Source of the DNA: a phage
Direction: 5' to 3' (one strand)
DNA length: 64,000 nt
Assembly (NCBI GenBank): GCA_008273105.1
Contig: GCA_008273105.1_4080.1
The translations under genes and the position numbers were made by a program. Under the pieces are notes generated by a model. The model was not told where the DNA came from and made no database searches. It saw only the letters and a list, made by a program, of their open reading frames with translations. The number at the start of each line of letters is the position of its first letter. Positions within the stretch are counted from its first letter, which is position 1. This document shows positions 1-57,647 of this stretch, in pieces.

Positions 1-332
1 GCACCAATCGAAATAGTAGTATTTCTATCAGATAAATTAATATTAAAAACAGCATTGCCCGACAGTGGATTAATTAAAATATTATTAGAACTTAATACAT
101 TATATAACTTATTACTTGCACTATCATATAATGTTACCCATTCTGTTTCATGATTCTCGTTAGTAGCTTTAGCTTTTATCTTAACATTATTTTCAGAATC
201 AGTCATTCCAGTCCATCCAGATATAATAAAAGAACTGTTTTTATTAGTTCCGAATGATGCAATCACAGAATCACTAAGAGAACTATCTTCACCATCAATA
301 GATCCGAGTACTGACAATGTTAAAACCATCAT
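1..332 (-). CDS. partial CDS (3' end beyond window start); N/S/T-rich protein of unknown function
   Basis: Minus-strand frame open from a tandem ATG-ATG near 332-327 down to position 1 (MMVLTLSVLGSIDGEDSS...); not in ORF track because truncated; weak RBS, start uncertain. Confidence 0.3.
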   Translation of the reverse strand, partial: MMVLTLSVLGSIDGEDSSLSDSVIASFGTNKNSSFIISGWTGMTDSENNVKIKAKATNENHETEWVTLYDSASNKLYNVLSSNNILINPLSGNAVFNINLSDRNTTISIG

Positions 333-500
333 TTTTAATGTCTACACCAGTTGCACCTGAAAAATTATTTTGAAATTTAATAACTCCGGTAGTGTGGATA
401 TCTGTGAAAATTTGTTGTGCCATACTTAATCCTTGTGTTAATTTATATTGAGTATTTATTGAGTGTAATGGCATTTTTAGTACCATTACACTTGTATATG

Positions 501-2771
501 TTACTTATACCATTGCATTTCTCTAATATCAATGATAATTTTTGATGCTAACTTGATGTTTGGTTTTTTAGGAAGTACTGATTTCTTATATAGAACATCA
601 CGAATGTATTGTACTTTATCATCGAAATATTCTAAGACTTCTTCATACTTCCATTTACCATTACGAATATCCATCAACATTTGTGCATCTGGTCGTTTAA
701 CTTGAATAATTCCACTTTGTAATGCTTCTTCTGCACTATTCAAAAGTCGGATTGTGTGCATAGCATGTTTACAGTTTCCATGTAATGCAGTTTTACCATT
801 TCTACGAGTAACCAGTGTACCGTTCGGAACTGAAAAACAAACAGTTCTGTAGTTAGTTACTGGAATTTTTTCAAGATTTTGTTTCATGTTTATTTTTTCT
901 GATTTAGGTTTCATATTGATATGAACTTGATACATTTCAATATAACCAAAATTAGTTTCGTTTGTGTATGGTCCCCATTTCGATGTTTCATAACCGCACA
1001 GTAATGCTAGTTTTTGAACATCATCAGCTAATAATGAATTAGCAGTATAATATACATATGTGTCATCATGATTGACCAAATTACGTTTTGTACCATCACC
1101 TTGCAACAAACCTTTTAGCAGAAAATCCATTTTTCGTTTTGTTAAATCAAATGCCCAATTTGGAATTCTTTTATTATATGATCCATGCCCACAATCATTA
1201 TATAATGCTTCAGCCACTTCACGTGGAAATACAAATCTTGATTCATCATTTGATTGGTAATCTTTTCTTTCGTTAATGTATTCCTGAAATATCATTTGTC
1301 CAGATTGTTTGTATTTTGATAAAGCACAACGCATACCAGGACTGGCTTTTGATTGTGAAATGTATAATGATTTTACTTTTCCATCTCTAAAACTTATACT
1401 ACCATCTGAAAGAAACCATCCCATCAGTTGAAGATAAACTTTGATATCCATATAGTCAATTGGGCTTTTTTTATCTTTATATTCCTTTGTTATTGGAGAT
1501 AATGTATTCAAAATTTTATAAGTTTCTTTTAATTGTGCTGCTTCAACAAATTGCCATTCTGACATATCTTTTTGCTGATTACGTGCATAATTCTTAACAT
1601 ACATTCTGTGATTTGCAGTCACTAACGTATCTTGGTGATGACCAGTGAAATGGTAAAGATTTCCATTGTATAAATTATCAAAACGTTCTGTGTATTTTTG
1701 ATACTCTATTTTGTGATTTTTATCAAAAGTCGCTAATAGATCTTTATCAGTGATGTCGTCAAATAATTTCCAACCATCTTTAGTTAAGAATTCAGTATCA
1801 AAACTATAACAGTCGTATCCGTGTTGTGATTCTAAAATAGCACGTTTGGCATTACGATTTTCTTTCCATTTATGATAACTTTTCCTATTCTCACTATTTT
1901 CCTGATATTCTTTTTCGTTAAATTTGACAATTAGTTCTGGTTTAGTTTTCAACTCTTCAGTACTACGCTCTTTAGAAAAATAACGCAATGATCCATCACC
2001 GTTGATAGTGCTTTCATTCGGATTTTTAATAATCGCAAAAATGTTTTCTCCGTAATGAATTAGTTCATAACCATTATTAAAATTCAATAAATTGAAATCA
2101 CGATCAAGAATTTTTTCAGTAGTGTAGTTATGCACTAATCTTACAAAATGATATTGCTTTAATGGATTTTTCGAAACTAACTGCAATGACGTATCACGCA
2201 TATATTTTTCAAAATCAATCTTTTTAGCATTAAATGGATGTAAGTTGGATGTATCTAAACGTTCAACAAGATACTGTGGGAATGAATCATACATCCACGC
2301 AAGAACCTCATCGACAGGGTGTTCTTCTAAAATCTCATTTAATCGTTTTTCAGCAATACGCTCTTTATCCATCCAACCGTGATGATTTGTCATACGCTTA
2401 ATCTGATTATATGCATATCCAGTGTATGAAAATGCAATCTTGGAACTAAGAAGTTTTTGGTTAAATGAACGAAGATAGTCATAAATCTCAGTACTTTCTA
2501 CAATGTGTTCTGGATCGACCCATAGTGATTCCAATATATTAGGGTTGGCTTCAGTGTATAATTTTAAATACTGATTTAACTCATAGAATTTAGTATCTTC
2601 TTCATTTTTATCAGCTACTTCTTTGACCTTATAGAATGGCGTAAGAATAAATTCTTTATTAGCAAGAAAAATACCACGATAATCAGTATCACTTTCAGGT
2701 GTACTGGTTCCGTAGGCTTGTGACCCAGCCAAGTGTTTCACTATTGTTTGTTCAACATATTGGTTATTCAT
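501..2771 (-). CDS. Pol-beta-superfamily nucleotidyltransferase (RNA-repair-associated type) interrupted by an in-frame intein
   Basis: N-terminal LAGSQAYGTSTPESDTD matches the G-S-x-x-Y-G...S-D-x-D signature of minimal nucleotidyltransferases; residues 321-666 carry intein-like blocks; ATG at 2769-2771 verified by reverse-complement translation. Confidence 0.6.
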   Translation of the reverse strand: MNNQYVEQTIVKHLAGSQAYGTSTPESDTDYRGIFLANKEFILTPFYKVKEVADKNEEDTKFYELNQYLKLYTEANPNILESLWVDPEHIVESTEIYDYLRSFNQKLLSSKIAFSYTGYAYNQIKRMTNHHGWMDKERIAEKRLNEILEEHPVDEVLAWMYDSFPQYLVERLDTSNLHPFNAKKIDFEKYMRDTSLQLVSKNPLKQYHFVRLVHNYTTEKILDRDFNLLNFNNGYELIHYGENIFAIIKNPNESTINGDGSLRYFSKERSTEELKTKPELIVKFNEKEYQENSENRKSYHKWKENRNAKRAILESQHGYDCYSFDTEFLTKDGWKLFDDITDKDLLATFDKNHKIEYQKYTERFDNLYNGNLYHFTGHHQDTLVTANHRMYVKNYARNQQKDMSEWQFVEAAQLKETYKILNTLSPITKEYKDKKSPIDYMDIKVYLQLMGWFLSDGSISFRDGKVKSLYISQSKASPGMRCALSKYKQSGQMIFQEYINERKDYQSNDESRFVFPREVAEALYNDCGHGSYNKRIPNWAFDLTKRKMDFLLKGLLQGDGTKRNLVNHDDTYVYYTANSLLADDVQKLALLCGYETSKWGPYTNETNFGYIEMYQVHINMKPKSEKINMKQNLEKIPVTNYRTVCFSVPNGTLVTRRNGKTALHGNCKHAMHTIRLLNSAEEALQSGIIQVKRPDAQMLMDIRNGKWKYEEVLEYFDDKVQYIRDVLYKKSVLPKKPNIKLASKIIIDIREMQWYK
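774..1811 (-). mobile_element. intein with LAGLIDADG homing-endonuclease domain (about 346 aa), in frame within the nucleotidyltransferase CDS
   Basis: Begins with Cys (CYSFDTEFLTKDGW, block A-like), LVTANH resembles block B TxxH, two LAGLIDADG-like motifs (LMGWFLSDGSI and LLKGLLQGDGTK), ends ...ALHGN followed by Cys+1 (CKHAM); penultimate residue is Gly rather than the usual His. Confidence 0.5.
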
Positions 2772-3169
2772 AGATAAATTGTTAACTCCTTTAAGAAACC
2801 GTTATAATAACGATTAAAGTCATGTTCTAATGTTTTATAATCATCAAAACTAAAACCTAAATTGATAATTGTATCTTCTTGAAAGAAAGTTTCTTCATTC
2901 ATACATTCAATTGGTTCGTAATTAATTCCACCTTTAAAAACTTTTGTAAAAAATATTCCATCATTATTAATTTCAACATACATAAAATTATTTTCTGGGT
3001 CACGAGGGCAGACGATATTCAGTGAACTATTTCCACTCGTGTTGTACTCATAAGAAATTATATCAAAAGAATCAATACCATAACACTTAGATTTTTCTTT
3101 ATCACCAAATACTTTTCTATCTGTACTCATATTGCGTATAGTGCTGTAGATATCATCAACTGTAGTCAT
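2768..3169 (-). CDS. hypothetical protein (133 aa)
   Basis: Track ORF in same-strand dense array; start overlaps upstream stop; no recognisable motif. Confidence 0.45.
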   Translation of the reverse strand: MTTVDDIYSTIRNMSTDRKVFGDKEKSKCYGIDSFDIISYEYNTSGNSSLNIVCPRDPENNFMYVEINNDGIFFTKVFKGGINYEPIECMNEETFFQEDTIINLGFSFDDYKTLEHDFNRYYNGFLKELTIYL

Positions 3170-3171
3170 CG

Positions 3172-3681
3172 TTAACCACCATACTTTGACTTGTATGTTT
3201 CAAGTGATAAAGAAATACGATTTTGCTTTTTAATTCTTTCATCAATATCCTTTGAATTCTTCACACTTCGGTATACGTCAGCTAGTAAATTATAATCTTC
3301 TTTATTTGAGCTATGCTGTGCCCAACCTATCTCTGTTTTAATACGAACATTTGCTTTATTTGACGAGTAAAAGAAACTGAATCCATTGGACCCATCAAAA
3401 ATATCAAAAGTATCTACCCAATCACCATAAGGAAAGCTCATTGGAACTGACTCATGGTCTATTGTGATATCCGATAAATTTTTTGAACAGTACTTCGCAA
3501 AGTGATAAACGATTGGATCACATTTTGATAATTCGTATTTGTATTCAATGATAGTTTTTCTATTAGCATCATTGATAGCATATTCTTTTATCAATGGACT
3601 TTTTTTGATGATAAGAGTCCATAGAAACGATTCTAATCCTGTTTCATCAACTTTTTGTTTCTTTTTGAAAAATGAAATCAT
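3172..3681 (-). CDS. hypothetical protein, paralog family A member (169 aa)
   Basis: Shares N-terminal pattern (I/L)-x-K-S-P/Y-x-L-K ... D-x-N/D-R-K/R ... Y-x-L-S-K with the two adjacent ORFs. Confidence 0.5.
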   Translation of the reverse strand: MISFFKKKQKVDETGLESFLWTLIIKKSPLIKEYAINDANRKTIIEYKYELSKCDPIVYHFAKYCSKNLSDITIDHESVPMSFPYGDWVDTFDIFDGSNGFSFFYSSNKANVRIKTEIGWAQHSSNKEDYNLLADVYRSVKNSKDIDERIKKQNRISLSLETYKSKYGG

Positions 3682-4199
3682 TTATATAAACCCTTAATTT
3701 TCTGTCTATTATGTATATCATTTTGCTGGATTTTCAATTTAGTAAGGTTGTTTCTTACACCTTCAACACCACGCATTATTTGTAACATAATTAGTGATTC
3801 GTCATATGTTAGGACATTGCTATTATTATCGATATATACTTTCACTCCACTTTCAAGATAATCATTTTCTTTGGAGTTAAAGTTTCTAATAACAAACTTA
3901 ACGCCATTTGATGCATCACTGAAAACATATCGTTCCGCACCGTAGAATGTTTTTCCACGAAATAAACCGCCGTCTTCCCACTTCCAACGACTAGATTCAT
4001 AATCATTAACGTAATCAATGATTAAAGAAAGTAAAGGGTGTTTGCTCAATTTATATTTTGCATCTAACAGGATACGTCTATCATTATCTGTGGTGATAAT
4101 ATCCTTTAGTGAGTAGCTTTTAGATATAATTTTAAAGATAATTTCATGCCAAATTAAAGTACTGTTTTGTTTTCCAACTGATCCAAAAAACATATCCAT
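3678..4199 (-). CDS. hypothetical protein, paralog family A member (173 aa)
   Basis: IISKSYSLKDIITTDNDRRILLDAKYKLSK aligns with neighbours LCKSPSLKAEFKTDDDRKALIEMKYMLSK and IIKKSPLIKEYAINDANRKTIIEYKYELSK. Confidence 0.5.
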   Translation of the reverse strand: MDMFFGSVGKQNSTLIWHEIIFKIISKSYSLKDIITTDNDRRILLDAKYKLSKHPLLSLIIDYVNDYESSRWKWEDGGLFRGKTFYGAERYVFSDASNGVKFVIRNFNSKENDYLESGVKVYIDNNSNVLTYDESLIMLQIMRGVEGVRNNLTKLKIQQNDIHNRQKIKGLYK

Positions 4200-4205
4200 T
4201 CCTCA

Positions 4206-4772
4206 TTAGTATAAATCAGTAATGTCTTTGTATGCATTAATCTGTTTTTGTTGTAATGAAAGTTCATTGAGTTTAGTTACCATCTTATCTACACCAACAC
4301 GTGTATAGAAAATAATTAATGAATCTAAATTGCCTAGAGTAATTCTTGAACTGTAAGTTGAAAGTTTTCTTGCATAAACATAAATTTCTTCTTCACTTGG
4401 TAAACGTTTCTCAATCTGCAAGATTTCCTCACCATTCGGCTCATAATCGATTTCAAATTCAACTCCCATCACTGTGTCTTGAATGCGATCTGTATATGAA
4501 CCACCGTAAAAATACTCTCTTGGTTTGGCTCTCCAACGAGGACTAAATGGGTCAGATGCGTATTCTTTTACAAATTTGTAAAAGGACATTTTACTGAGCA
4601 TATACTTCATCTCAATTAGTGCTTTGCGGTCATCATCAGTTTTAAACTCTGCTTTGAGCGATGGACTTTTACACAGTAACTTAACTAAATTGTTGTACAT
4701 CTTTAATGTACGTTGTTCTTTCATTTCTTTGATTTTGTGACGTTTTGGTGGCGGTAATAAAGATTTGACCAT
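4206..4772 (-). CDS. hypothetical protein, paralog family A member (188 aa)
   Basis: Same conserved N-terminal block as 3172..3681 and 3678..4199; first gene after the tail-fibre terminator. Confidence 0.5.
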   Translation of the reverse strand: MVKSLLPPPKRHKIKEMKEQRTLKMYNNLVKLLCKSPSLKAEFKTDDDRKALIEMKYMLSKMSFYKFVKEYASDPFSPRWRAKPREYFYGGSYTDRIQDTVMGVEFEIDYEPNGEEILQIEKRLPSEEEIYVYARKLSTYSSRITLGNLDSLIIFYTRVGVDKMVTKLNELSLQQKQINAYKDITDLY

Positions 4773-4804
4773 AATTTCCTCCTATTTTTATTCAATTATA
4801 CACA

Positions 4805-4835
4805 TAAAAGAAAAGCCCGTCAATAGACGAGCTTT
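4805..4835 (-). terminator. rho-independent terminator after tail-fibre-like gene
   Basis: Minus-strand hairpin (agcccgtc/gacgagct, one mismatch) followed by T-run, immediately 3' of the stop at 4840. Confidence 0.45.
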
Positions 4836-4839
4836 AAAT

Positions 4840-7569
4840 TTATTTCCAACGTGTACCTGGACCTGATGGTACACCAGTACTGGCAGGTATCGCTGAACCA
4901 CGTTTCGTTGTACTTGGACGATATGTCAAAAAACGAGTTACTTTTTCTGTATCAATTGAAGTTATTCCTGAAGTTCCAGTAACTATCTTACCAATGTAAG
5001 TGCTAGTTAAAGATTCATCAATTGTTTCAGTACTAATAACATATGACGCTTTCTTAGTATTCCTGTTCATTTGTATATACAAATAGAACGTAGTATTAGC
5101 TGGATTACTTTTTACAGTACTTAAATCAACACTTTGTATAGGTAGTCTGTCGAAAATTCCACCTAAAAACACCGGAACTTCACGTGTAAAGTACACTGAG
5201 AATCCTTGTGCAACGTCTTGTGATACTACCACAATCTTTTCTTTAACGCTACCATTTCCACTAATTAAACCATCCATTTCAGCAGATGTTGTACCAAAAA
5301 CGCTGAATACAGATTTGGTTTGATAGTCAGAATCTTGAAAATTGTAATATCCAAAACCAACACCAGGAATAACACCATGTTGATATGCTGCACCAAGTTG
5401 GATGTAACTAGATGATAAAAAACGATTTGATGTTATGACACCATCTACTGTTTTAGCTATCATCATCTTAAATTGTGCATTACCTGGTTGTGAAAATTGA
5501 TGAACGGCATCAACACCAATGTAACCAAATCCTGAATATTTTGCAACAGTTAGACCAGTACAACGTTTCATATATGCTTCAGTAATAATTCCTGTAACAG
5601 AACTCAGTGTTTCATATCTAGTACTCACCAATGTAGCTGAAGTTATGTTAGTTCCAGATAATACAACATCAACTTCGGCATAGATTGCATAACCTTGGTT
5701 ATTGTTAAGATTATATGCTGAAACTACTGCGATGGATTTAGAAAAAGTATTATCAGGTACATAATATAATACAATTTGTCCAGATAGTGTACCAACAATG
5801 CCAGAGTTTCCTATATTAGCAAAAATATCTTGTTTTAATGATTCTAATACCGTTGGTTCTATTGTATATGTTTCATCAAATTCTAAAGTATCTGGATTTA
5901 ATAATCCACCACTTGTTTTATATACACCTTCAATGAATGATGTTCCATAGCATCTAACACTACCATCGGTATCAACAAGAGAAATCATAGCAGTGTATGT
6001 AAAATCATCGCCTATTTGTTTACGATTAGATTGTGGTGCAAAACCATTTAATGTAGTATTATTTTGAACTGAGTTATATTGATATGTTGGTTGTGAACCT
6101 ATTTCAGAAAAAACAGTATTATTATAATTATATGTTACATCATCATACGTACCAGAACATGCTAATAATATTTTTCTATTATCGATGAAACGTACACCTA
6201 AAAGGTTTGCACCAACAGCACTACCAAAAACTGGTAAAACGTTTGCATTTATAACGTTACTTGCGGTTCTAGTACTGGCAACCCATGAATCAAACGGTGT
6301 ACCACTAACCTTATATCGTTGTAGACCATAAAATTCAGTTGAACTCCATCTAAATTTAGATGCAAATACCAAACCATCTTTAGTTTGACATAAACCACCT
6401 GCGTTTCCTAATACACCAGCAGCAGTTGTCCCTGTGAAGTTGACCATATTAATTTCAAATGGGTTAGAAACTTGAAATCCATTATTATATGAAACAGTTG
6501 CAGGTGCACGAGCACTACCATCTAGTGACATAGATTTTGAGTTTATATTATAAACAAAACTTATTCCAGTACCATAAACTGTTGAAATATACAAAGGTGT
6601 AACCATTCGATGTGTTGGATATAAAGTTACACGTATTTTTGATAAATCAGGACTAACGTTGGCTTGAATGTTAAAGTCTGTATAGTCTGAAAATTCTACA
6701 CGTGATACTGGTGATGTAACTTCGAATAATGAATCCGAGCTAGTACCAACACTATATAATTTATCGAACACTCTTATGTTATTAGATGCAGAATAACTTG
6801 TGTTTCGAACAGTTTGACCTGATAACCCAGTAACTTTTGTTAATGATGCCATTGAGCTTGCTTTCACATCACTTAGCTCTACTGTATAAATTGAAAGTGC
6901 TAATCCTAAATTAGAAACACTTTTATCTTTACACCAAATATAAACCTTTGTCCCAACAATATGTGTATATATTGGCATATCATTACCAAAAGAAGTACTT
7001 GGCACTTTAGCATGAATATGTGATATTTCGTTAAATGTGCCATTGGTTATAGTAAAAATATAATTATCTTCAGTACTTAAACATCCAAGCATCTCATAAC
7101 CATTAGAGCCAATAAAATACTTAATATTTTCAGTACTACTCATAATTGAAGGTTTATACATTGAATTGGTTGAAATAACACTTTCTTGTGAAATCATAGT
7201 TATATTTCGGAGATCTCGTATAAATGAATAATAAAAACCTTTAGTACTACCATTGGTTCCGCTACGCAGAACAACGGCGGTTCCATCATCTTCAATAATT
7301 GTTGGCTGAACTACTTGGTCACTTGACATAGGTGTAGCACCTTCATACGATCCACTTACGTTTAATGGTAAGTAATCCATTTCTCCTACACGTGATATAG
7401 GCAACATATCTAAAATACTTTGAACTTCTGAACGCTTATATATTGGATATTGAACAATTCCAGTATTGGCATTCGGTGAGGTTCCATTAAAAGTACGCAT
7501 AGCGTACCTTTGTCCAATTGCCAAGTTCCCAAGGATCTCGGCACTTCCTATAATTCGTTTTGATGACAT
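4840..7569 (-). CDS. tail-fibre-like large structural protein (about 909 aa from adjusted start)
   Basis: N/S/T/G-rich; N-terminal LPISRVGEMDYLPLNVSGSYEG and LRSGTNGS blocks shared with the 8185..10881 protein; conserved C-terminal tail ending GTRWK; track ORF extends to 7659 but ATG at 7569 has an AAGGA RBS and avoids overlap with the upstream gene. Confidence 0.6.
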   Translation of the reverse strand: MSSKRIIGSAEILGNLAIGQRYAMRTFNGTSPNANTGIVQYPIYKRSEVQSILDMLPISRVGEMDYLPLNVSGSYEGATPMSSDQVVQPTIIEDDGTAVVLRSGTNGSTKGFYYSFIRDLRNITMISQESVISTNSMYKPSIMSSTENIKYFIGSNGYEMLGCLSTEDNYIFTITNGTFNEISHIHAKVPSTSFGNDMPIYTHIVGTKVYIWCKDKSVSNLGLALSIYTVELSDVKASSMASLTKVTGLSGQTVRNTSYSASNNIRVFDKLYSVGTSSDSLFEVTSPVSRVEFSDYTDFNIQANVSPDLSKIRVTLYPTHRMVTPLYISTVYGTGISFVYNINSKSMSLDGSARAPATVSYNNGFQVSNPFEINMVNFTGTTAAGVLGNAGGLCQTKDGLVFASKFRWSSTEFYGLQRYKVSGTPFDSWVASTRTASNVINANVLPVFGSAVGANLLGVRFIDNRKILLACSGTYDDVTYNYNNTVFSEIGSQPTYQYNSVQNNTTLNGFAPQSNRKQIGDDFTYTAMISLVDTDGSVRCYGTSFIEGVYKTSGGLLNPDTLEFDETYTIEPTVLESLKQDIFANIGNSGIVGTLSGQIVLYYVPDNTFSKSIAVVSAYNLNNNQGYAIYAEVDVVLSGTNITSATLVSTRYETLSSVTGIITEAYMKRCTGLTVAKYSGFGYIGVDAVHQFSQPGNAQFKMMIAKTVDGVITSNRFLSSSYIQLGAAYQHGVIPGVGFGYYNFQDSDYQTKSVFSVFGTTSAEMDGLISGNGSVKEKIVVVSQDVAQGFSVYFTREVPVFLGGIFDRLPIQSVDLSTVKSNPANTTFYLYIQMNRNTKKASYVISTETIDESLTSTYIGKIVTGTSGITSIDTEKVTRFLTYRPSTTKRGSAIPASTGVPSGPGTRWK

Positions 7570-7585
7570 CTTTATTTTCCTTAAT

Positions 7586-8173
7586 TTACCAACCAATTGT
7601 ACCAGTTTCTGATGGTTTTCCAGTACTGACTGGGAATGAAGAACCTTTTTGTGTAACACTAGGTCTATATGTACTAAATCTGGATACTTTATTAATGTTT
7701 ATATTTGTAATACCACTTGTACCAACGGTCAGTGTTCCAATAAACATTATAATTTCAGATTCTTGTATTTGTGTTGGTGATATTTTATAAATTGGTTCAC
7801 CGAGAACTAACGTTGCATATACGTATTGTGTTTGTGTTCCAGATGAAACAGTTGAAGCAAAAATAGAAACTGCTGGAAATTTATAAAGATAACCACCAAT
7901 AAATGATGGTATCTGTCTATTAAATGTAAGACTATAGCCTGATGAAGTAATATTTAGACTAGCGTCATCATACAATTCTCCGTATTGTGTAAGTGGTAAT
8001 CCATTGACAATAAAGTTAACTTCATCTTTGGTAATAGAGGGGAATGTACATTCCCCATTTGAATTTGTTGGGTAATAAGTCATATTATTACCTAATACAC
8101 CAAGACCAGTACTTTTACCCTGAACTGTAACTTGTTGCATTGCCTTAAGGTCTGCTCTTATTTTATATGCCAT
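7586..8173 (-). CDS. small tail-fibre-associated protein sharing the C-terminal module (195 aa)
   Basis: C-terminus SGITNININKVSRFSTYRPSVTQKGSSFPVSTGKPSETGTIGW parallels the C-termini of both flanking large proteins. Confidence 0.5.
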   Translation of the reverse strand: MAYKIRADLKAMQQVTVQGKSTGLGVLGNNMTYYPTNSNGECTFPSITKDEVNFIVNGLPLTQYGELYDDASLNITSSGYSLTFNRQIPSFIGGYLYKFPAVSIFASTVSSGTQTQYVYATLVLGEPIYKISPTQIQESEIIMFIGTLTVGTSGITNININKVSRFSTYRPSVTQKGSSFPVSTGKPSETGTIGW

Positions 8174-8184
8174 TATGTAATCCT

Positions 8185-10881
8185 TTACCAGTTTATGGTT
8201 CCTGTTTGTGATGGTAGACCGTAGCTAACTGGGAACGATGAACCTGCTGATTCAAGTGAAGCACCAAATATATCTAAACGGGAACGTTTTTGTATATTAA
8301 TTGTTTCGATTTGAATTGCATTAGTTTGAATTGTACCTATCCAAAAAATATTATATGCAGTTGTTCCTGTTTCAGAAATAACATCAGTAGTTATGTAATA
8401 GTTTGCCAATCCTTGTTCCAATTTAACATATACATAAAATGTTGTATTTGCTGGATTAGACTTAATAGTTCTCAAATCAATATTTGAAACTGGTAGTGAA
8501 AATGACTTACCTGAAAGAATAACTGGTGTTTCCTCTGTAAAATATACAATAAACCCTTGAGCAACGTCCTGGGATACTACGTTAATTGGGCTACCTTGTG
8601 CAGTCCAGTTATTATAGTCGGCAATCGTTGTTCCATATTTTTTGAATGTCATTTTATTTGAGTAATCCATTGGTTCAAAAATTCCAAAACCAATACCAGG
8701 TAATGCTGCTGGTTGACTTCCTTGTTCATAACTGGCATGAGATCCAGTAATTATAAAACTTGTAAATTGTGCAGTTGATTTAGTTACATATGCTCTAAAT
8801 TGATGAGTTGCAGTATTACCTATTGTTGGATGTGATAATGGGTCAGAACCACCAATGAAGTAGAATGAACCACCATCATATATTGTCAAACCAACAGAAG
8901 AAGATGCAATCGAACCATTCCCAGTTGGTGTAAAGTTATCACCATACGTATTCTCAAGTACTAAACGCTTAAATGTAATAGATGTAATATTACCAACTCT
9001 AGTATTGACATTAACTTCAGCAATTCTAATATAGTTTCTATAATCATTAGTAATTGTACTCAACATAACAAAAGCTGGAATGTCTGTTTGTTGTGGAACA
9101 AATAGTGTCATATCACGGTATGCTTGTGCTGATAAATTCCAATCACTTAGAACTTTGGCATATTCAGTATTTCTAAAATTGTCCAGTACTGATTGTGTAA
9201 CGCTTATAATTCCTGTGCCATTTAAGTTTTTATCATAGGATAATGATTGTGAATAACGTTGCCCAACCATAAAAATACCACCATTGGTTGTGACAGTTGA
9301 CCCAGAAATACTACTAATAAAAATTCTATTATTTGCATTATCATCAACATTAGCACGTTCAACTGTAGGTTCATAACCTTGTATTGTTCCTAAAGATAAT
9401 GATTTAAATGTAAAATTAGGAGTACTTTTATGAACTGCATATGATGGTCTAAATCCACCACTACCTGATGCACGTGAATATTGTTTAGTACTGTTATCTG
9501 GTAGTAATTCTACACCATTAATAAATGAACCAACCGCTGAACCAAAAGACGGGCGAACTATACCACCTTTGAAGTCAGTAGAAAGTACAGCACGGACATT
9601 CAGCATACTATAAACTATTTGAATAGGAAACTTAGCTTTTTGCATAAGTAATGGTTCTGCTAAGTTTGGACATGCAGTACAAAATGCTTCACCTGAATTT
9701 AAATAAAAATATGAACTATAAATGTTTCTTGCATTTGCATGGTTATACAATGGATCGTTATTTAAAACGTTACCAGTAGGAACTAATGCCGAACCAGTAT
9801 TAGTTATAACTAATGGTGCTTGATATGAACCAATATCGTTACCCGCATCTAATGTACATTGTTTAGTACTCATATTGAACACAAAACTGTAACTATGCTG
9901 TGGACGTGTATTATATGTTGCCATTGTAAACCAAGCATCCCCGTTCATTCTAAAGCGGAAATTCTGCGTTCCTGGCTGCTGTGCAACATATAAATCAATT
10001 GATGTCATGTAAATCCCAATACCACGTAGATTTTGTGGAACATACACATAAGGTTTATCAGCAATATTTGTTGATGTTACCTGATTAGTAATAACCATAT
10101 TATTTTGTGCAGAATATGTCGTGTTATAAAATGTTTTAGTAGTCCATCCAGTAATTCGAGTTGCAGTATAAGTACCATTGCTTATATTATAAACAACTTT
10201 AACAACAACTAATTGTAGTTGGTTATTTTCATTAAGTACGTTAAAAACATATATAGAACCATCTTCTGCCATCATAGCATATTCAATACCACCTTCAGGT
10301 GATATATCTGCTTGGTTAACGAAAAAACCAGTATGCAATTTATCATCTAATGTACCATTGGTAATTGATATGAACAAACCATTAGTACTGTTAGAAGTAT
10401 CAATATATCTACCGAGTAAAATATTTGGATCAGTATTATATAAACCAATCGCAACTCTATTTGAACCAAAAAACCCAGGCTTGTATTGACGACTAGTGTT
10501 AATTGTACGGCTCATGTCATCAACTGATAATGCGTTAGCCAAATATGAATAAAATAATCCCTCAACACTACCGTTTGTCCCACTACGTAAAAGTACTAGT
10601 GTACCATCGTTTTCTAATAAAATTTTATTTCTACGTTGTGACTGGTTTTCTGATGCACCATTGAAATCCCCAGAAACACCCGCAGGTAGATAGTTTTGTG
10701 AACCATAATGGGAGATTGGCATCATACTTACTATATCTAGTACTTCATCTCTGGAATAAGTATCTAATTCCAAGTTACCGTTGGAATCAAAAACTTGTTC
10801 ATTTATTCCTTGAATTGTTCTTTTACCATTAACTGTCACATTATGTGTGACATCTAAGCCACCATATATTTTCTTTGACAT
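8185..10881 (-). CDS. tail-fibre-like large structural protein (898 aa)
   Basis: N-terminal MPISHYGSQNYLPAGVSGDFNGAS and LLRSGTNGSVEGLFYSYL blocks; internal VSQDVAQGF...KSNPANTTFYVYV and C-terminal ...PSQTGTINW shared with the 4840..7569 protein; preceded by a TATAAATA motif. Confidence 0.6.
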   Translation of the reverse strand: MSKKIYGGLDVTHNVTVNGKRTIQGINEQVFDSNGNLELDTYSRDEVLDIVSMMPISHYGSQNYLPAGVSGDFNGASENQSQRRNKILLENDGTLVLLRSGTNGSVEGLFYSYLANALSVDDMSRTINTSRQYKPGFFGSNRVAIGLYNTDPNILLGRYIDTSNSTNGLFISITNGTLDDKLHTGFFVNQADISPEGGIEYAMMAEDGSIYVFNVLNENNQLQLVVVKVVYNISNGTYTATRITGWTTKTFYNTTYSAQNNMVITNQVTSTNIADKPYVYVPQNLRGIGIYMTSIDLYVAQQPGTQNFRFRMNGDAWFTMATYNTRPQHSYSFVFNMSTKQCTLDAGNDIGSYQAPLVITNTGSALVPTGNVLNNDPLYNHANARNIYSSYFYLNSGEAFCTACPNLAEPLLMQKAKFPIQIVYSMLNVRAVLSTDFKGGIVRPSFGSAVGSFINGVELLPDNSTKQYSRASGSGGFRPSYAVHKSTPNFTFKSLSLGTIQGYEPTVERANVDDNANNRIFISSISGSTVTTNGGIFMVGQRYSQSLSYDKNLNGTGIISVTQSVLDNFRNTEYAKVLSDWNLSAQAYRDMTLFVPQQTDIPAFVMLSTITNDYRNYIRIAEVNVNTRVGNITSITFKRLVLENTYGDNFTPTGNGSIASSSVGLTIYDGGSFYFIGGSDPLSHPTIGNTATHQFRAYVTKSTAQFTSFIITGSHASYEQGSQPAALPGIGFGIFEPMDYSNKMTFKKYGTTIADYNNWTAQGSPINVVSQDVAQGFIVYFTEETPVILSGKSFSLPVSNIDLRTIKSNPANTTFYVYVKLEQGLANYYITTDVISETGTTAYNIFWIGTIQTNAIQIETINIQKRSRLDIFGASLESAGSSFPVSYGLPSQTGTINW

Positions 10882-10915: not shown

Positions 10916-10923
10916 TATTTATA
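10916..10923 (-). promoter_or_regulatory. T4-type late promoter motif TATAAATA
   Basis: Exact TATAAATA on the minus strand about 35 nt upstream of the ATG of the 898-aa tail-fibre-like gene, just downstream of the nrdG terminator. Confidence 0.4.
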
Positions 10924-10957: not shown

Positions 10958-11428
10958 CTAAAAATCTTTATTTTTATATAGTATTCTTTGATTATTTGAA
11001 CCACGGAAAGGTAATTTTAAATTCTTTTCGGACTCAATAAACTTACCATCAACTAATACATCTAAGTACTGAAGTATATCTTTAGCATGATTTTTCATAA
11101 TCTCATCTAAAGTATACCCACTCCAGCACCAAATAGTTTTACTAGGATAAGTTTCTTTAACTACTTTGCATAGATTTAAAACTTCATCTATATTCTTTTT
11201 CATTAATGGATCGCCGCCTAGAAGTGACAAACCACTAACATATGGTTTTTTTAGTTCCTGTAGTATAATCTCAACTGTTTCAGTACTGAACAATTGACCA
11301 CTTCTGTAATCCCATGCTTCTTCATTGAAGCAACCATCACATCCGTGCGAACACCCACTAACAAATAAAGAGCAGCGAACGCCCTCTCCATTTACTAAAT
11401 CATCCTTGATTATCGTCTGGTAATTCAT
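10958..11428 (-). CDS. nrdG: anaerobic ribonucleotide reductase activating protein (radical SAM)
   Basis: N-terminal DLVNGEGVRCSLFVSGCSHGCDGCFN has the CxxxCxxC cluster and NrdG-typical context; 156 aa. Confidence 0.8.
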   Translation of the reverse strand: MNYQTIIKDDLVNGEGVRCSLFVSGCSHGCDGCFNEEAWDYRSGQLFSTETVEIILQELKKPYVSGLSLLGGDPLMKKNIDEVLNLCKVVKETYPSKTIWCWSGYTLDEIMKNHAKDILQYLDVLVDGKFIESEKNLKLPFRGSNNQRILYKNKDF

Positions 11429-11732
11429 CTAATATTGCACTCACTATTTCGACAAGAACATCGCCGTGACATGATTTTGGTTTACAGAAACAACCAAGGC
11501 GTTTCCCTGCGAGTTCAAGTAATTCATCAATCTTAACTTCTCCACAAGAAATACGTTCAATAATGTATTCTCTGAATTTTTCAATTGATTCTTCTCTTGT
11601 ACTAACAATGAACTCGGCTTTGGTTTGTTTATCTTTAATATGGGTAAATGGGTTTCCCCATTTAGACCCACGTCCAATATACACATCATACGGTTCTTTG
11701 TATTTGTTAACCACAATTGGCTTTAAATCCAT
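11400..11732 (-). CDS. conserved phage protein with R-G-S-x-W-G-N-P-F motif (DUF4326-like)
   Basis: YIGRGSKWGNPF motif near N-terminus; sits between nrdD and nrdG and overlaps the nrdG start by about 29 nt; family name is from memory, not searched. Confidence 0.45.
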   Translation of the reverse strand: MDLKPIVVNKYKEPYDVYIGRGSKWGNPFTHIKDKQTKAEFIVSTREESIEKFREYIIERISCGEVKIDELLELAGKRLGCFCKPKSCHGDVLVEIVSAILDELPDDNQG

Positions 11733-44919: not shown

Positions 44920-45112
44920 GGACACGCTCACAATTAAGGCAATAAATGCACTCAATGTCAGGTCGCCATGATTTATCAAAATCTTTATGTTGTTCTTCGG
45001 TGTATTCCGCATCATCATTAATAGGGAAGAAATCACCAGCACCAGTCGCCCAGTCTGAATCTAAACGGAAACGAGCTAATTGAGTACTGTTACAATATGG
45101 ACATTTATTCAA
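44912..45112 (-). CDS. zinc-ribbon protein (66 aa)
   Basis: CPYCNS ... CIYCLNC paired CxxC motifs. Confidence 0.5.
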   Translation of the reverse strand: MNKCPYCNSTQLARFRLDSDWATGAGDFFPINDDAEYTEEQHKDFDKSWRPDIECIYCLNCERVHD

Positions 45113-45389
45113 AATTTATTCCTTCTAACTGATATACGTTTAATGAAAATGACCCACTATTATTATCGCATCTGAAACACAGTGTTAAAGAACCATTAAA
45201 ACTAACTACATCCGTACAGATACATTTTTCACCATTGGATATGATAGATTTTCCTATATATAAATCTCTTACTATAGTACGGTAATGTTGCCATAAAAAA
45301 TAATACACACTTTCATAGTACTCATCTTTTACATATGATAAGTATAAGAATTTATAAAATACTTGTATTTCCTTTAAGTTGTTTTTCAT
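45105..45389 (-). CDS. small protein, paralog family B (94 aa)
   Basis: N-terminal EIQVFYKFLYLSY shared with neighbouring ORFs. Confidence 0.5.
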   Translation of the reverse strand: MKNNLKEIQVFYKFLYLSYVKDEYYESVYYFLWQHYRTIVRDLYIGKSIISNGEKCICTDVVSFNGSLTLCFRCDNNSGSFSLNVYQLEGINFE

Positions 45390-45663
45390 TCTCCAACTCC
45401 AGTAAATTTACACCAATCCAATCAACATCACTATCAGTACTTAATTCCAATCGTAGCTTACCGCTATGACTAACAATATCGCGAAATTTGTATATTTTAT
45501 TATCACGAACTATACACAAATCATGGTAATATTCATGTAATTCATCCAAAAACTTTATCCATACCGAACGATATATTTCACTGTAGAGATATTCTCCAGC
45601 ATCAACCGTAGCGTATTGGATATACAAAAATTTGTATGTGAATTGTATATCATTTAATAACAT
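45352..45663 (-). CDS. small protein, paralog family B (103 aa)
   Basis: N-terminal LNDIQFTYKFLYIQY. Confidence 0.5.
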   Translation of the reverse strand: MLLNDIQFTYKFLYIQYATVDAGEYLYSEIYRSVWIKFLDELHEYYHDLCIVRDNKIYKFRDIVSHSGKLRLELSTDSDVDWIGVNLLELENEKQLKGNTSIL

Positions 45664-45673
45664 ATGTAACCTC

Positions 45674-45985
45674 TTATAAATTCACCAACTTCACAACTTT
45701 AATCTCGATAAATCCCCTATCGGTTATTTCCTGAAATTGAACATGGATTATACCATTATATGATTGCACACCATAGAAATCGAATTTATCATTTCCATCG
45801 ATAAAAGTACTGTAATTCTTTTTTATATATTCACCTACTGAATCTAAGTACTCAATATATAAATCAATAAATGGTTGTTCTTTGGATCGGTTATGTGAAC
45901 CTATGTTGTTACTAACAAGGTATACATCATACAAATCATATAGGATCTTATAAGTGAATTGTATATCATTTAAATTTAATCCCAA
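45674..45985 (-). CDS. small protein, paralog family B (103 aa)
   Basis: N-terminal LNDIQFTYKILYDLY. Confidence 0.5.
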   Translation of the reverse strand: MGLNLNDIQFTYKILYDLYDVYLVSNNIGSHNRSKEQPFIDLYIEYLDSVGEYIKKNYSTFIDGNDKFDFYGVQSYNGIIHVQFQEITDRGFIEIKVVKLVNL

Positions 45986-46242
45986 GGGAATATCTCCAAC
46001 GGAATACTGGTAAATCCAAAATCAGTGTAGTACTGAACCTCAACTTTACCATCACGTCTAATGATTATATCAGAAAATTCTGCATGGTCATCACCAATAA
46101 TAACAGTACTGAATTTTTTTTTAATCTTACCACGAATCGTATGAATCATTTCAGTGCATGTGTCTTCTAGACTAGGGCTATCATTGTCGTGTGCTAAATC
46201 TTGAATAATCTTGTATGTTAGTAGGAAATCTTTATAATTCAT
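45976..46242 (-). CDS. small protein, paralog family B (88 aa)
   Basis: N-terminal YKDFLLTYKIIQDL. Confidence 0.5.
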   Translation of the reverse strand: MNYKDFLLTYKIIQDLAHDNDSPSLEDTCTEMIHTIRGKIKKKFSTVIIGDDHAEFSDIIIRRDGKVEVQYYTDFGFTSIPLEIFPWD

Positions 46243-46514
46243 ATGTCCACCAAATCTATACTATATCTTTCATTAGTATTACTATCTATAAATGATAGTA
46301 CTAATTTACCACCAAAACTATTAACTTGTTCTATCTTCTGTTTTTTACCACGAATGATTATCTCACTATTAACAAAATATTCACGTATCATTATTAAGTG
46401 ATTAATCCAGATAGTATGAGTGAATGTGTTTTCTCGTATTGTATTGAGATATCTTCCATTGTGATGTAAATCAAACAAAACACTGTATGTATATTGTAGA
46501 ACTTTATAATTCAT
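46239..46514 (-). CDS. small protein, paralog family B (91 aa)
   Basis: N-terminal YKVLQYTYSVLFDL. Confidence 0.5.
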   Translation of the reverse strand: MNYKVLQYTYSVLFDLHHNGRYLNTIRENTFTHTIWINHLIMIREYFVNSEIIIRGKKQKIEQVNSFGGKLVLSFIDSNTNERYSIDLVDI

Positions 46515-53070: not shown

Positions 53071-53544
53071 TTACTCCAAACTGGGATCTTTAACTGTTAG
53101 ACTTTCTATGTCACTCGCATAAAGAACTACATTGGATTGATTTTCAGACACTTTAAAGTCGTGATAACTGTCTTTGACGATAAAATTATCTAATATAAAC
53201 CCTTTACTACAGCACATCATAATTTTATCATCTTTGATTGTGTAGGTGTTTTTCTTTTTACGTACTTCAGATTGTGGCGTAATACTATCGTTATTACGAA
53301 TAACACAATCAATATATTGTTCATTTGTACTCATAGGCATACCCATGATAAACGAGTTTTCAGTACTGATTGTTAGTATAAAAACGTTAGTATTTGGGTT
53401 GTGAAAAAAATCATGCATTGTCTTGCTACACAAAAATAGACATTGAATAATGTCCTTCACATTAAACATTATATCATGAACTTTGAATGCGTCCAACTCT
53501 AAAATGTCATCAATTTTCCCATTTTCAACAGTTTTAATCTCCAT
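53071..53544 (-). CDS. hypothetical protein (157 aa)
   Basis: Track ORF. Confidence 0.5.
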   Translation of the reverse strand: MEIKTVENGKIDDILELDAFKVHDIMFNVKDIIQCLFLCSKTMHDFFHNPNTNVFILTISTENSFIMGMPMSTNEQYIDCVIRNNDSITPQSEVRKKKNTYTIKDDKIMMCCSKGFILDNFIVKDSYHDFKVSENQSNVVLYASDIESLTVKDPSLE

Positions 53545-53586
53545 GATCTATCCTTGATCTTCTAATGCACTCCATGTGCGTTTTTA

Positions 53587-54084
53587 TTAAGTCACTGCAT
53601 TATACTTCTCTATAGCATTAGTAATATTTAATATAGCTTCAGGAACCATTTCTTTATTGTATTCACGTTTTAAATTTTCCATTTTCTTAATAATTTCCAA
53701 GAAAAATGGCAAAATACATGAAGTATCTGTAAAATTACATGAGTACAAAGTACTCATTTGAAATAATTCACCTGAATCAATATTAAGAGATTTGTATTCC
53801 TTAACAATGTTTTCGTTTGTATTGAAAATATGAAATACTGTTCCCATGTGATGAAGATATACACCATTCTCATTTTGAATATGGCATGGTGTGATTACAA
53901 TAGCAGTGTTGTCAATATTATTTACTATTGATAAACGTAGACTATGTAAACCTAAAATAACAGTACAATCACTTGAACTGCTTTGAATTTGGTCAGCAGT
54001 TTGTGTAACACTTGTAATATTTTCCCCATCAAGACAACTCTTGATTTTATCAAATGAATTTTTCATTGATTTAGTTAGATACAT
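53587..54084 (-). CDS. FQ-motif family protein (165 aa)
   Basis: Contains GELFQMSTLY. Confidence 0.5.
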   Translation of the reverse strand: MYLTKSMKNSFDKIKSCLDGENITSVTQTADQIQSSSSDCTVILGLHSLRLSIVNNIDNTAIVITPCHIQNENGVYLHHMGTVFHIFNTNENIVKEYKSLNIDSGELFQMSTLYSCNFTDTSCILPFFLEIIKKMENLKREYNKEMVPEAILNITNAIEKYNAVT

Positions 54085-54488
54085 TTATGAACACCTTCGA
54101 AATATTTGATTAATGATTTTATCATATCGCTACTAATGCCATGTAAGTCAACACCTAAACACTCGTATTGAAAAAAATCAATATCCTCCAGTGTGTTTAG
54201 ATCAATTTCCACCTTATCATGACCCAACGAATTCATAATAACGTTTTTATCATTAATTGTCAAGAAAGTTTTTTTATCTGAACCTAAAAAGATTTTTACA
54301 TGTTTTTTTGGCATTACATCATAAGATAAAGATTGTGAACCATAAATGTATATGCCTTCCATTGAACCAATATCTATAAAATATAGACGAATCCCTTTGT
54401 GGTATTTTGACTCCTTAGTGATCGCCTCTATTAGTTCATCTGTGGTTGTTAACCTTGTTTCTTTCTTCTCTAAATTGCTCAAATGCAT
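54075..54488 (-). CDS. hypothetical protein, possible diverged FQ-motif member (137 aa)
   Basis: Contains DFFQYECLG. Confidence 0.45.
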   Translation of the reverse strand: MHLSNLEKKETRLTTTDELIEAITKESKYHKGIRLYFIDIGSMEGIYIYGSQSLSYDVMPKKHVKIFLGSDKKTFLTINDKNVIMNSLGHDKVEIDLNTLEDIDFFQYECLGVDLHGISSDMIKSLIKYFEGVHKCI

Positions 54489-54909
54489 AAAATAATACCT
54501 TGATCATTTGTAATGTTTCCGACATTACATCAGCAGAAAATTGAACATCAGTGTATTTTACCATAGTACTTTGAGTAAAGAAAGTAGCTTCAATATCTTC
54601 AAGGTCAAATGGCTCATCAAATAAATTAGTACTGAACATATCAGTTTTTTTCTTATAAGTCAACATAAACTTAGCACTGTATCTCAATACAATTTCATCT
54701 TTACTTACTAAAATTCGTGCAATGTTCTGTCTACCCAGTGTTGTAATGTTAACATTAAACGTATTCTTTCGTGCCTCAACAATATCAACGAAATAACCAT
54801 CACCTTGGTAAACGTTATGACGAACTTCTAATCCTTGTTGAACTGTATTGAACAGTGCGTCCTGGATAAAATAATTTGCAGTATCGATGTTTCCTAAAAT
54901 ATCTAACAT
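54436..54909 (-). CDS. hypothetical protein (157 aa)
   Basis: Track ORF. Confidence 0.45.
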   Translation of the reverse strand: MLDILGNIDTANYFIQDALFNTVQQGLEVRHNVYQGDGYFVDIVEARKNTFNVNITTLGRQNIARILVSKDEIVLRYSAKFMLTYKKKTDMFSTNLFDEPFDLEDIEATFFTQSTMVKYTDVQFSADVMSETLQMIKVLFYAFEQFREERNKVNNHR

Positions 54910-55439
54910 AACTTCTCCTTTATAGCTGTCATATTTAGAAGAAATTCAGTAAGCAATTCCTCCGTAACATGCTCTGTATACCAGAATATCACAATATCTT
55001 TTGAAAGTCGTGTATTCATAAAAATATCTACTAACTCTTTGTAGAACTCTAGTGTTTCGAGATTTGTGAGAATTAACGAGTACTGAAAGAGTAATTCTTC
55101 CGTTAGATTAAATTCTGGATAAAGTAAATCATTGAACTCATGTGATGCAGTTTGAACTTTAATTTCTTTGAAGTTATTGGTTATACAACCGGAATAAATA
55201 TTTCGGTGCAACTCTCTGTACAACGCAGCATAATCTATGAATTTTGCTTTAGGGTTAAAATCAAGAACACTTTCACCTTTATATGACAATCGGTGGAACG
55301 CCGAGAACATAGTCACTTCCCACGGTTGCTTAATATCTAGCTCAGTAATATCAATATTATTGGACAGAAGAACCGTAAAAATCTCACCAATCTTTAATAG
55401 TAACTTAGTACGTGCCAGTGCTACCATCGGGTCAGTCAT
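54903..55439 (-). CDS. FQ-motif family protein (178 aa)
   Basis: Contains TEELLFQYSLIL. Confidence 0.5.
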   Translation of the reverse strand: MTDPMVALARTKLLLKIGEIFTVLLSNNIDITELDIKQPWEVTMFSAFHRLSYKGESVLDFNPKAKFIDYAALYRELHRNIYSGCITNNFKEIKVQTASHEFNDLLYPEFNLTEELLFQYSLILTNLETLEFYKELVDIFMNTRLSKDIVIFWYTEHVTEELLTEFLLNMTAIKEKLC

Positions 55440-55852
55440 TATACACCTTCATATTCATCAAGAAAATCTTCGATAATCATTTCAGCTTCATCCATATGCA
55501 TAGCATCAACTTCAATGATGCGAACTTTAGATGCATCCCAAATCATAAAGCTAGGAACATTGTCTGGCTCGTAATCATTTTTGTACTGAACAGCATCATA
55601 ACCTTGAGCAGTGCAATTCTCAATAAGTGAACGCCACTCATCATCACTGCCTAAATCTTCACACAGAAGCACGTTATCAACATCAACTTCTAAGGTATGC
55701 AAGTATACTGTACATGCGTCTACTACGTTCAGTGGGCTTCTCAGCTTGCGTAATGCAGCTTCCAAAGCACTGTGTTTACCTCCCATATGAAGACCACCAT
55801 ACGGGATATAAAAGTTATCAATTTTTACAGTACTCGCATGATACAGTTTCAT
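55439..55852 (-). CDS. hypothetical protein (137 aa)
   Basis: Track ORF; distinct from array neighbours (MKLYHASTVKIDNFYIPYGGLHMGGKHS). Confidence 0.5.
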   Translation of the reverse strand: MKLYHASTVKIDNFYIPYGGLHMGGKHSALEAALRKLRSPLNVVDACTVYLHTLEVDVDNVLLCEDLGSDDEWRSLIENCTAQGYDAVQYKNDYEPDNVPSFMIWDASKVRIIEVDAMHMDEAEMIIEDFLDEYEGV

Positions 55853-55861
55853 ATTTCATTC

Positions 55862-56446
55862 CTATTTCAGTACTTTAGTCAATGCTTTCACAGCGGTTTC
55901 GAGTTGAGCATAGTCGTTAATTGTAAGGTAATGAATACCATGTGCCTTCATTTCAGCATCTATTTTACTATATAAATCAAACATGTCAAGGATATGATTG
56001 TATGCATATGAAGTATTTGAAACACACAATTCTTGGAACAAACGTTCTTCCAAGTCATTCACAACTTCTCCATGAATATCAAGTACTACACCATCTTTGT
56101 AAGTGTAGTACTCTTCACTCCACTCTTCAGAAAGTCGGAACAGTAACGGATTCCCGCCGAACACTTCCATGTCATAGGAATTTATCTCACTAAGTAGTGT
56201 TTCACCTGGTTCTGGTGTGAAGTCAAAATATGCGAGTGTTGTACCATCATAGTCCTTGAGTGATATACCAGTATGATTTAAGGTTACTTCACCATAATTA
56301 TTATTCTTGAACTTGATTTTGATATTAATCTCAATGTATTTTATTGTCTCATCATCACTGAAATTGTAATCAACTTTATACTTTTTCCAAAGAAGTTTGA
56401 TATCTTTGAAGTACTTTAATTTACTTTCAATTTCTTTAAAGTCCAT
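55862..56446 (-). CDS. FQ-motif family protein (194 aa)
   Basis: Contains LEERLFQELCVS. Confidence 0.5.
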   Translation of the reverse strand: MDFKEIESKLKYFKDIKLLWKKYKVDYNFSDDETIKYIEINIKIKFKNNNYGEVTLNHTGISLKDYDGTTLAYFDFTPEPGETLLSEINSYDMEVFGGNPLLFRLSEEWSEEYYTYKDGVVLDIHGEVVNDLEERLFQELCVSNTSYAYNHILDMFDLYSKIDAEMKAHGIHYLTINDYAQLETAVKALTKVLK

Positions 56447-57586: not shown

Positions 57587-57647
57587 AAAATTCTCCTTTA
57601 GGACAATGTATCATACAAAAATACCAGAGTCAACCCCTGGTACGAAT

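Follow-up and report, generated by a model that had tools for sequence, protein, structure and literature searches.

For jumbo phages, the predicted task of RlaP-family enzymes is the repair of tRNA (Iyer et al. 2021, PMC7824862). These enzymes add one or two nucleoside monophosphates to damaged RNA 3' ends and can restore the function of over-trimmed tRNA (PMC12776372). In RaK2-like jumbo phages, a family of small proteins is encoded close to such an enzyme. It is represented here by three consecutive genes, paralogs A, B and C (positions 3172 to 4772), in a stretch of phage DNA of 64,000 nucleotides (contig GCA_008273105.1_4080.1 of GenBank assembly GCA_008273105.1), which as a whole is called the window. 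RaK2 ORF001 and ORF002, 121Q gp502-504, phAPEC6 gp319c-321c and CBB gp150, gp153, gp155 and gp156 belong to the same family, and these phages share the locus and its gene order. The family always stands in one string with RlaP, to which Thg1 (tRNA-His guanylyltransferase) is added in Mimasvirus and Eneladusvirus; unlike these enzymes of RNA-end repair, it has no detectable enzymatic or RNA-binding domain. Another described system that bears a likeness is that of the tail-fibre chaperones (T4 gp38/gp57A, Tfa/Caudo_TAP), which are also small non-virion proteins encoded beside fibre genes.

Paralogues account for about 10% of the RaK2 proteins (PMC3622015), and a paralog family of small size is in itself nothing unusual for a jumbo phage. 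RaK2-like jumbo phages are used and studied as therapeutics against E. coli, Klebsiella and Salmonella, and most of their genes lack an assigned function (83% in phAPEC6). A first-pass annotation of the window had described A, B and C as a local triplication between an intein-bearing gene and the tail-fibre genes, and from their place next to host-range determinants had suggested a functional specialisation, for example against different host targets. It had proposed pairwise alignment, substitution rates, structure prediction and copy number in related phages as checks.

The DNA from 2700 to 4900 is 100% identical to Escherichia phage vB_EcoM_E9.1, and its identity to about 35 Asteriusvirus jumbo phages, among them PBECO4, 121Q, phAPEC6 and G17, is 90-99.8%. 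The source of the window is an Asteriusvirus (PBECO4/121Q-like) jumbo coliphage. All genes treated in this report lie on the minus strand (Table 1). A conserved N-terminal block is common to the three proteins (A, CKSPSLKAEFKTDDDRKALIEMKYMLSK; B, SKSYSLKDIITTDNDRRILLDAKYKLSK; C, KKSPLIKEYAINDANRKTIIEYKYELSK). In BLASTP, A and B match over about 175 residues, that is, over their full length and beyond the N-terminus alone (E 5e-15, 30% identity); the match of A to C comprises the N-terminal block only (E 1e-4) and that of B to C is confined to about 40 N-terminal residues (E 4e-4). Smith-Waterman scores were set against 1000 shuffles per pair, with z values of 22.6 for A-B and 6.0 for A-C (none of the 1000 shuffles equal in either case) and 5.7 for B-C (one of 1000). 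Since all three pairs score above their shuffled controls, the observation of paralogy stands.

Profile comparison extends the homology. A and B are assigned to phrog_18641 (E 4.1e-79 and 3.1e-85) and C to phrog_7868 (7e-58), and near full-length cross-matches (2e-11, 6e-6 and 4e-5) link the two groups. The strongest of these, of B to phrog_7868, runs over residues 10-173, and the homology of C therefore covers the whole protein. Reading frames, block, BLASTP and profiles agree on three consecutive related genes that share an N-terminal block and have otherwise diverged, as first described. A, B and C are members of one family, composed of PHROGs 18641 and 7868, which PHROGs wrongly splits. 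This family is already catalogued, in PHROGs and as "hypothetical protein" in at least 45 genomes, and has never been characterised. A search of all six frames of the window with the hidden Markov model (HMM) of the family found no further copies. Open reading frame (ORF) D was considered as a fourth paralog and rejected (shuffle z about 0 against A, B and C; hhalign probability 0.5%). The position given at first holds in part: the array does adjoin the fibre genes, but ORF D separates C from the intein-bearing gene.

Table 1. Features of the locus and of other gene sets in the window (aa, amino acids; pI, isoelectric point)
Feature	Position	Strand	Description
Composite terminator/promoter	4795-4835	-	Lies after the stop of the preceding fibre gene and before the ATG of A
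Paralog A	4206-4772	-	188 aa, type 1, pI 9.1, A-specific insertion in the sheet region
Paralog B	3678-4199	-	173 aa as listed, type 1, pI 9.2
Paralog C	3172-3681	-	169 aa, type 2, pI 8.7; start overlaps the stop of B (ATGA)
ORF D	2768-3169	-	133 aa, acidic, pI 4.4, phrog_22376
RlaP-family (PF10127) nucleotidyltransferase	501-2771	-	756 aa with intein; final gene of the packed unit
Fibre-like gene	8185-10881	-	898 aa
Fibre-like gene	7586-8173	-	195 aa
Fibre-like gene	4840-7569/7659	-	~909 aa
Second paralog set, ORF	45105-45389	-	
Second paralog set, ORF	45352-45663	-	
Second paralog set, ORF	45674-45985	-	
Second paralog set, ORF	46239-46514	-	

A HMMER search of 1.84 billion representative proteins returned 35 clusters only, all of single-domain proteins of 50-209 aa, and the phage matches found by tblastn were confined to RaK2-like jumbo phages. 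By tblastn, the family is present in Asteriusvirus, Alcyoneusvirus (RaK2, K64-1, Muenster), the Munch/7t3-like Salmonella phages, Mimasvirus (CBB, GAP32, XbC2) and Eneladusvirus (BF, fHe-Yen9-03/04, Erwinia pEa_SNUABM). Counted with the family HMM, the locus holds three copies in Asteriusvirus, Munch, XbC2 and the metagenomic L007, two in RaK2 and in Muenster, four in CBB, and at least two in each of the metagenomic L008 and L009; the gene layout of Serratia phage BF is, by annotation, as in CBB. Copy number across relatives thus ranges from two to four, and each genus examined has its copies at one conserved locus.

In a neighbour-joining tree built with 20 copies that represent six phage groups, A and B fall into a type 1 clade (bootstrap 100) with RaK2 ORF001, Munch gp172 and CBB gp150, while C belongs to a type 2 clade (bootstrap 74-76) with RaK2 ORF002, Munch gp173/174 and CBB gp153. 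A type 3 clade (bootstrap 96) comprises Mimasvirus and L008 only. From this placement of A and B relative to C it follows that the split between types 1 and 2 is older than the RaK2-like genera. The divergent Asteriusvirus A4 has a separate orthologue for A and for B. As judged from the tree, the array is an ancient pair to which one A/B duplication was added at the base of Asteriusvirus. A local triplication is therefore not what the tree depicts; only the A/B duplication lies at the level of Asteriusvirus.

Orthologues of A and B have a ratio of non-synonymous to synonymous substitution rates (dN/dS) of 0.18-0.19, those of C one of 0.10 and those of the nucleotidyltransferase one of about 0.05. 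The values of the array (0.10-0.19) mark its three members as genuine genes subject to purifying selection, which is more relaxed for A and B. The comparison of A with its G17 counterpart is the sole one with dN/dS above 1 (1.1; 9 replacement and about 2 silent changes, few sites). Five nucleotide changes in this pair fall in codons 115-119 (EEILQ versus VESWP), in the A-specific loop insertion, and these codons may form a local hypervariable patch, the counts being small.

The expression signals before A form a composite module. A hairpin, AAAGCTCGTC-TATT-GACGGGCTTT (4835-4812, 10 pairs), was called as a terminator, and a -35 hexamer, TTGACG (4823-4818), lies within its loop and 3' arm. A 17-nucleotide (nt) spacer and a -10 hexamer, TATAAT (4800-4795), follow, and the site, a near-consensus sigma-70-type promoter, scores 11/12 in a promoter scan. 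A ribosome-binding site, AGGAGG, is found 6 nt before the ATG of A. The same module occurs upstream of the first family gene in nine phages (Turkey3, ph0011, A4, Munch, L007, L009, CBB, XbC2 and BF), which span at least four groups; each has a hairpin that embraces TTGAC, then 17 nt, then TAnnnT. The stems carry compensatory changes (GCTCGTC/GACGGGC, GCCTGTC/GACAGGC, GGTTGTC/GACAGCC, GCGGTC/GACCGC and GCCCC/GGGGC). The module is bifunctional in layout, its -35 element TTGAC(A/G) sitting inside the terminator hairpin of the preceding late operon. In CBB, XbC2 and BF the intergenic region contains two TTGAC promoter-like sites, the second of which has a strong hairpin in CBB only. The coding strand of the whole window has 13 near-consensus sigma-70 sites (at least 11/12) and the opposite strand 1, against an expectation of 3.8 +/- 1.8.

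The fibre cluster is preceded by different signals, namely a terminator hairpin and then a T4-type late octamer, TATAAATA (10916-10923, minus strand), about 35 nt upstream of the fibre-cluster ATG. This octamer is strongly avoided, with 2 copies in the window against 13.8 +/- 3.8 expected, and its rarity and placement are consistent with a gp55-type late promoter system. For the related phage CBB, the authors gave RpoD-like promoters to the early genes and an ATAAATA motif to the late structural ones, and noted a T4 gp55-like late sigma factor (PMC5259590).

Within the array the genes are tightly packed: A and B are 6 nt apart, C and D 2 nt, and D, like B, overlaps the gene that follows it (ATGA). 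Because a GAGG Shine-Dalgarno sequence lies 7 nt upstream of the second ATG of B (4193; MFFG..., 171 aa), and because the orthologues and the G17 annotation begin there, this is probably the true start of B. ORF D holds the same position, between C and the nucleotidyltransferase, in Asteriusvirus, Alcyoneusvirus and the Munch-like phages. As a terminator and a sigma-70-type promoter precede A, the fibres have a late motif and the genes are closely packed, we infer from the sequence one transcription unit, P(sigma-70-type)-A-B-C-D-nucleotidyltransferase, that would be read by host RNA polymerase and would be distinct from the late fibre operon.

The virion proteomes add a further element. The 62 proteins of the phAPEC6 virion (PMC7247149) include the flanking fibre proteins gp314c, gp315c and gp323c but not gp316c (the nucleotidyltransferase), gp318c (D) or gp319c-321c (C, B and A). 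Likewise, the mass spectrometry (MS) table of the RaK2 virion (Table S3) is without gp001 and gp002, and for CBB an MS flag is given to the structural proteins 148 and 149 but not to 150, 153, 155 and 156. Because they are missing from all three virion proteomes, the family members are non-virion proteins.

The gene that closes the unit encodes a nucleotidyltransferase of the RlaP family (PF10127, 4e-15). The enzyme is split after ...ESQHGYD by a LAGLIDADG intein of 346 aa (aa 321-666, nt 774-1811; Cys...His-Asn|Cys), which is absent from the orthologues in G17, Turkey3, ph0011 and A4; the phAPEC6 orthologue is annotated at the intein-less length of 410 aa. The order of structural genes of about 900 aa, the family and, further on, RlaP recurs in every genus examined (G17, A4, RaK2, Muenster, CBB, XbC2, Munch, BF and the metagenomic L007 and L008). 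Linkage to the RlaP gene on the same strand was found in the window, G17, A4, RaK2, Muenster, L008, CBB, XbC2, Munch and BF. In CBB, XbC2 and BF the family copies are interleaved with genes for Thg1, DUF4326 and a DNA methyltransferase. None of the stretches examined showed an RNA ligase. The linkage of the family to RlaP does not extend beyond one phage clade, the family being confined to RaK2-like phages, and so is not independent evidence of a functional tie. The synteny with RlaP and Thg1 is suggestive of a shared RNA-related role.

On the basis of these elements, it is tentatively proposed, as the likeliest of several readings though one that may well be wrong, that the family consists of early intracellular accessory proteins of host conflict or RNA repair. 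Host RNA polymerase would transcribe A, B and C early, and within the infected cell their products would be binding proteins that take part in the conflict between phage and host. Their likeliest role would be alongside the syntenic RNA (tRNA) end-repair enzymes, that is, RlaP and, in Mimasvirus and Eneladusvirus, also Thg1. The diverged copies could each recognise different targets; such specialisation is possible. A cluster of "hypothetical proteins" thereby becomes a defined experimental target for host takeover or counter-defence at the RNA level.

Several points weigh against this proposal. RlaP is widespread without the family, for example as T4 NrdC.11, and it is for this reason equally possible that the linkage is merely synteny inherited within one clade. 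Between the window and A4, the family has kept 33-41% amino-acid identity versus 88% for RlaP, and evolves far faster. In Turkey3, A to C have a dS of 0.15-0.38 while D and the nucleotidyltransferase are saturated (dS NaN and 2.3, respectively), and these values place a recombination break between A-C on one side and D and RlaP on the other. The early timing is predicted from promoter sequence; no transcriptomes of Asteriusvirus or RaK2-like phages were found in the literature, and the promoter table published by the CBB authors does not list the site upstream of CBB_150. The pI of 8.7-9.2 is a weak sign of nucleic-acid binding, and no sequence or fold match in Pfam, NCBIfam, PADLOC, PDB profiles or BFVD gives a biochemical activity.

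Some of these points would fit better with a second explanation, in which the three are early accessory proteins of a generic kind that evolve fast, for example inhibitors of host defence or of housekeeping functions, with no tie to RlaP or RNA repair and with a gene order that is merely inherited. Over long distances the divergence of the family is about as fast as that of the fibres, which the A4 orthologues illustrate, and this pace, the copy number of two to four, the narrow phyletic range, the Turkey3 break and the non-synonymous patch in A relative to G17 would all be in keeping with such a role. However, the three proteins, each of about 20 kDa, are basic, whereas DNA-mimic inhibitors are acidic (in the unit it is D that is acidic), defence models yielded one marginal match only, and the synteny with RNA-end-repair enzymes is maintained across at least five genera. 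This explanation is unlikely, though it comes nearer than any other to the proposed role in host conflict or RNA repair.

Considerably less probable is the direction taken by the first-pass annotation, namely that each of the three adjacent fibre genes has in the array its own chaperone for tail-fibre assembly or its own host-range accessory factor. The array does lie directly downstream of three homologous fibre-like genes of about 200-900 aa, Asteriusvirus has three copies and three fibre genes, and a chaperone would be compatible with the non-virion status. The three fibre-like genes (4840-10881) are paralogous to one another. For the last of them, the ORF finder gives a GTG start at 7659 that is probably too far upstream; in the annotated orthologue the start is ATG 7569. 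But elsewhere the number of copies does not track that of the fibres: RaK2 has two copies versus six ORFs annotated as tail fibre or spike in its genome paper (PMC3622015), and the four copies of CBB are interleaved with Thg1, DUF4326 and methyltransferase genes. Furthermore, the fibres and the array seem to be under separate transcriptional control, as set out above. Unlike tail-fibre chaperones, the family has an early-type promoter of its own after a terminator and shows no covariation with fibre alleles; it is also without a chaperone domain in Pfam, ancient, and multi-copy irrespective of the number of fibres.

The comparison of genomes points in the same direction. In 13 genomes the fibre cluster has about 76% nucleotide identity where the array keeps about 90%. 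Relative to the window, the amino-acid identity in ph0011 is 44-54% for the fibres, 86% for A, 91% for B, 96% for C, 98% for D and 97% for the nucleotidyltransferase; by these figures the fibres were clearly swapped and the array retained. The corresponding values are 72-86% (fibres), 94% (A), 92% (B), 92% (C), 88% (D) and 82% (nucleotidyltransferase) in Turkey3, and 41-51%, 41%, 33%, 41%, 61% and 88% in A4. From the differing identities and dS in ph0011 and Turkey3 it follows that the locus is a mosaic with breakpoints at the module borders, and, by the same figures, the array has no tight bond with the fibres or, inside the genus, with the nucleotidyltransferase. The fibre block is exchanged as a unit between Asteriusvirus lineages, with flanks of at least 90% identity. 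A, B and C are thus probably neither tail-fibre parts nor fibre-specific chaperones. The link to host-range determinants is not supported, given the separate terminator and promoter, the absence from three virion proteomes and a fibre swap that leaves the array in place, and the cluster can be struck from the list of such determinants. A paper on the fibres of phage phiKp24 does not mention the family proteins.

The surroundings of the fibre block hold further variation. Immediately upstream of the fibre cluster, NrdG and NrdD flank a DUF4326 gene (11400-11732, minus strand), and in Munch, CBB, XbC2, BF and L008 a DUF4326 gene is found within the family array. This suggests that the Asteriusvirus fibre block now splits a DUF4326-family-RlaP region which is contiguous in those phages. 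Downstream of the nucleotidyltransferase, positions 1-486 (minus strand) carry a small virion-protein gene, homologous to phAPEC6 gp315c, and a fibre gene, which together make up a variable cassette. The probable start of the small gene is ATG 422, giving 42 aa. The cassette is present in the window, G17, phAPEC6 and A4 and absent in Turkey3 and ph0011, where an acyl-carrier-protein gene follows directly.

The predicted structure bears on the other explanations. Structure prediction had been among the checks proposed at the outset, and AlphaFold reached a mean predicted local distance difference test (pLDDT) score of 68.6 with a 9-sequence alignment and of 88.9 with 31 diverse members (predicted template modelling score 0.80). 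The latter model has helices at 17-25, 31-34, 38-52, 57-65 and 132-171 and strands at 72-74, 88-95, 100-106 and 119-123, and thus confidently predicts a three-part fold made up of a four-helix N-domain, a small antiparallel sheet and a 40-residue C-terminal helix. Ten residues are conserved in at least 90% of the 31 members (K27, S28, L31, D38, R41, K48, Y49, S52, D95 and Y172 in the numbering of B), and A, B and C each carry all of them. The set from K27 to S52 is located in the helical domain and D95 in the sheet, and the C-terminal helix ends in the invariant Y172; the conserved polar residues could line a binding or active site.

The model apparently represents a new fold with no convincing structural relative. 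A BFVD structure search returned uncharacterised family members only, and Pfam, queried with the 31 members at E up to 1, gave scattered single chance matches and no chaperone domain such as Caudo_TAP. With the three proteins and the 31 members, NCBIfam and PADLOC yielded nothing meaningful, apart from the marginal defence-model match. A PDB profile search gave E values of 0.18 and above only; its top candidate, a 26-residue motif match to the phage tailspike 4y9v, was judged to be due to chance.

It could be imagined that proteins of this shape are early DNA-binding transcription factors, for example activators of middle promoters, with an N-domain that binds DNA or sigma and a C-terminal helix that dimerises. 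Their basic character, the early-type promoter and the conserved K, R, S and Y residues of the helical N-domain would suit such a function, and a divergent class of middle-type promoters, whose -35 element is unusual, is present in RaK2-like phages (PMC5259590). However, no helix-turn-helix family was detected in Pfam or NCBIfam, and a core regulator would not usually be expected in two to four copies that diverge fast. The idea is improbable, about to the same extent as a fibre chaperone.

The family was also compared with the XRCC4/XLF/PAXX/SAS-6 superfamily, DNA-repair and centriole scaffolds in which a beta-sandwich head is joined to a long coiled-coil stalk. Sequence identity is 4-10%, and the four-helix domain of the family precedes the sheet whereas theirs is a helix-turn-helix inserted in a seven-stranded sandwich. 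One might picture a new-fold dimeric scaffold or adaptor of head and stalk, analogous in function to XRCC4/PAXX in DNA end-joining, for phage RNA (tRNA) end repair or for the blocking of host anticodon nucleases, each copy serving a different damaged RNA or ribotoxin; if true, this would be a previously unrecognised phage counter-defence component at the RNA level, and it is the least probable of the explanations considered here.

Tandem paralogy is not restricted to A, B and C in the window. A second set of four ORFs of 91-103 aa (45105-46514, minus strand; Table 1) belongs to phrog_21004 and phrog_32291. In addition, there is an unbroken run of about 20 same-strand ORFs of uniform size (137-200 aa) at 53071-63449 on the minus strand. 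Six ORFs sampled from this run (59147-62561) each match a different PHROG, and some pairs show a weak similarity, with shuffle z values of 9.2 (60948 against 62019), 6.4 (60948 against 63036) and 5.3 (57035 against 57648). The run may be a very old and highly diverged paralog array, situated in an early region with several near-consensus sigma-70 promoters.

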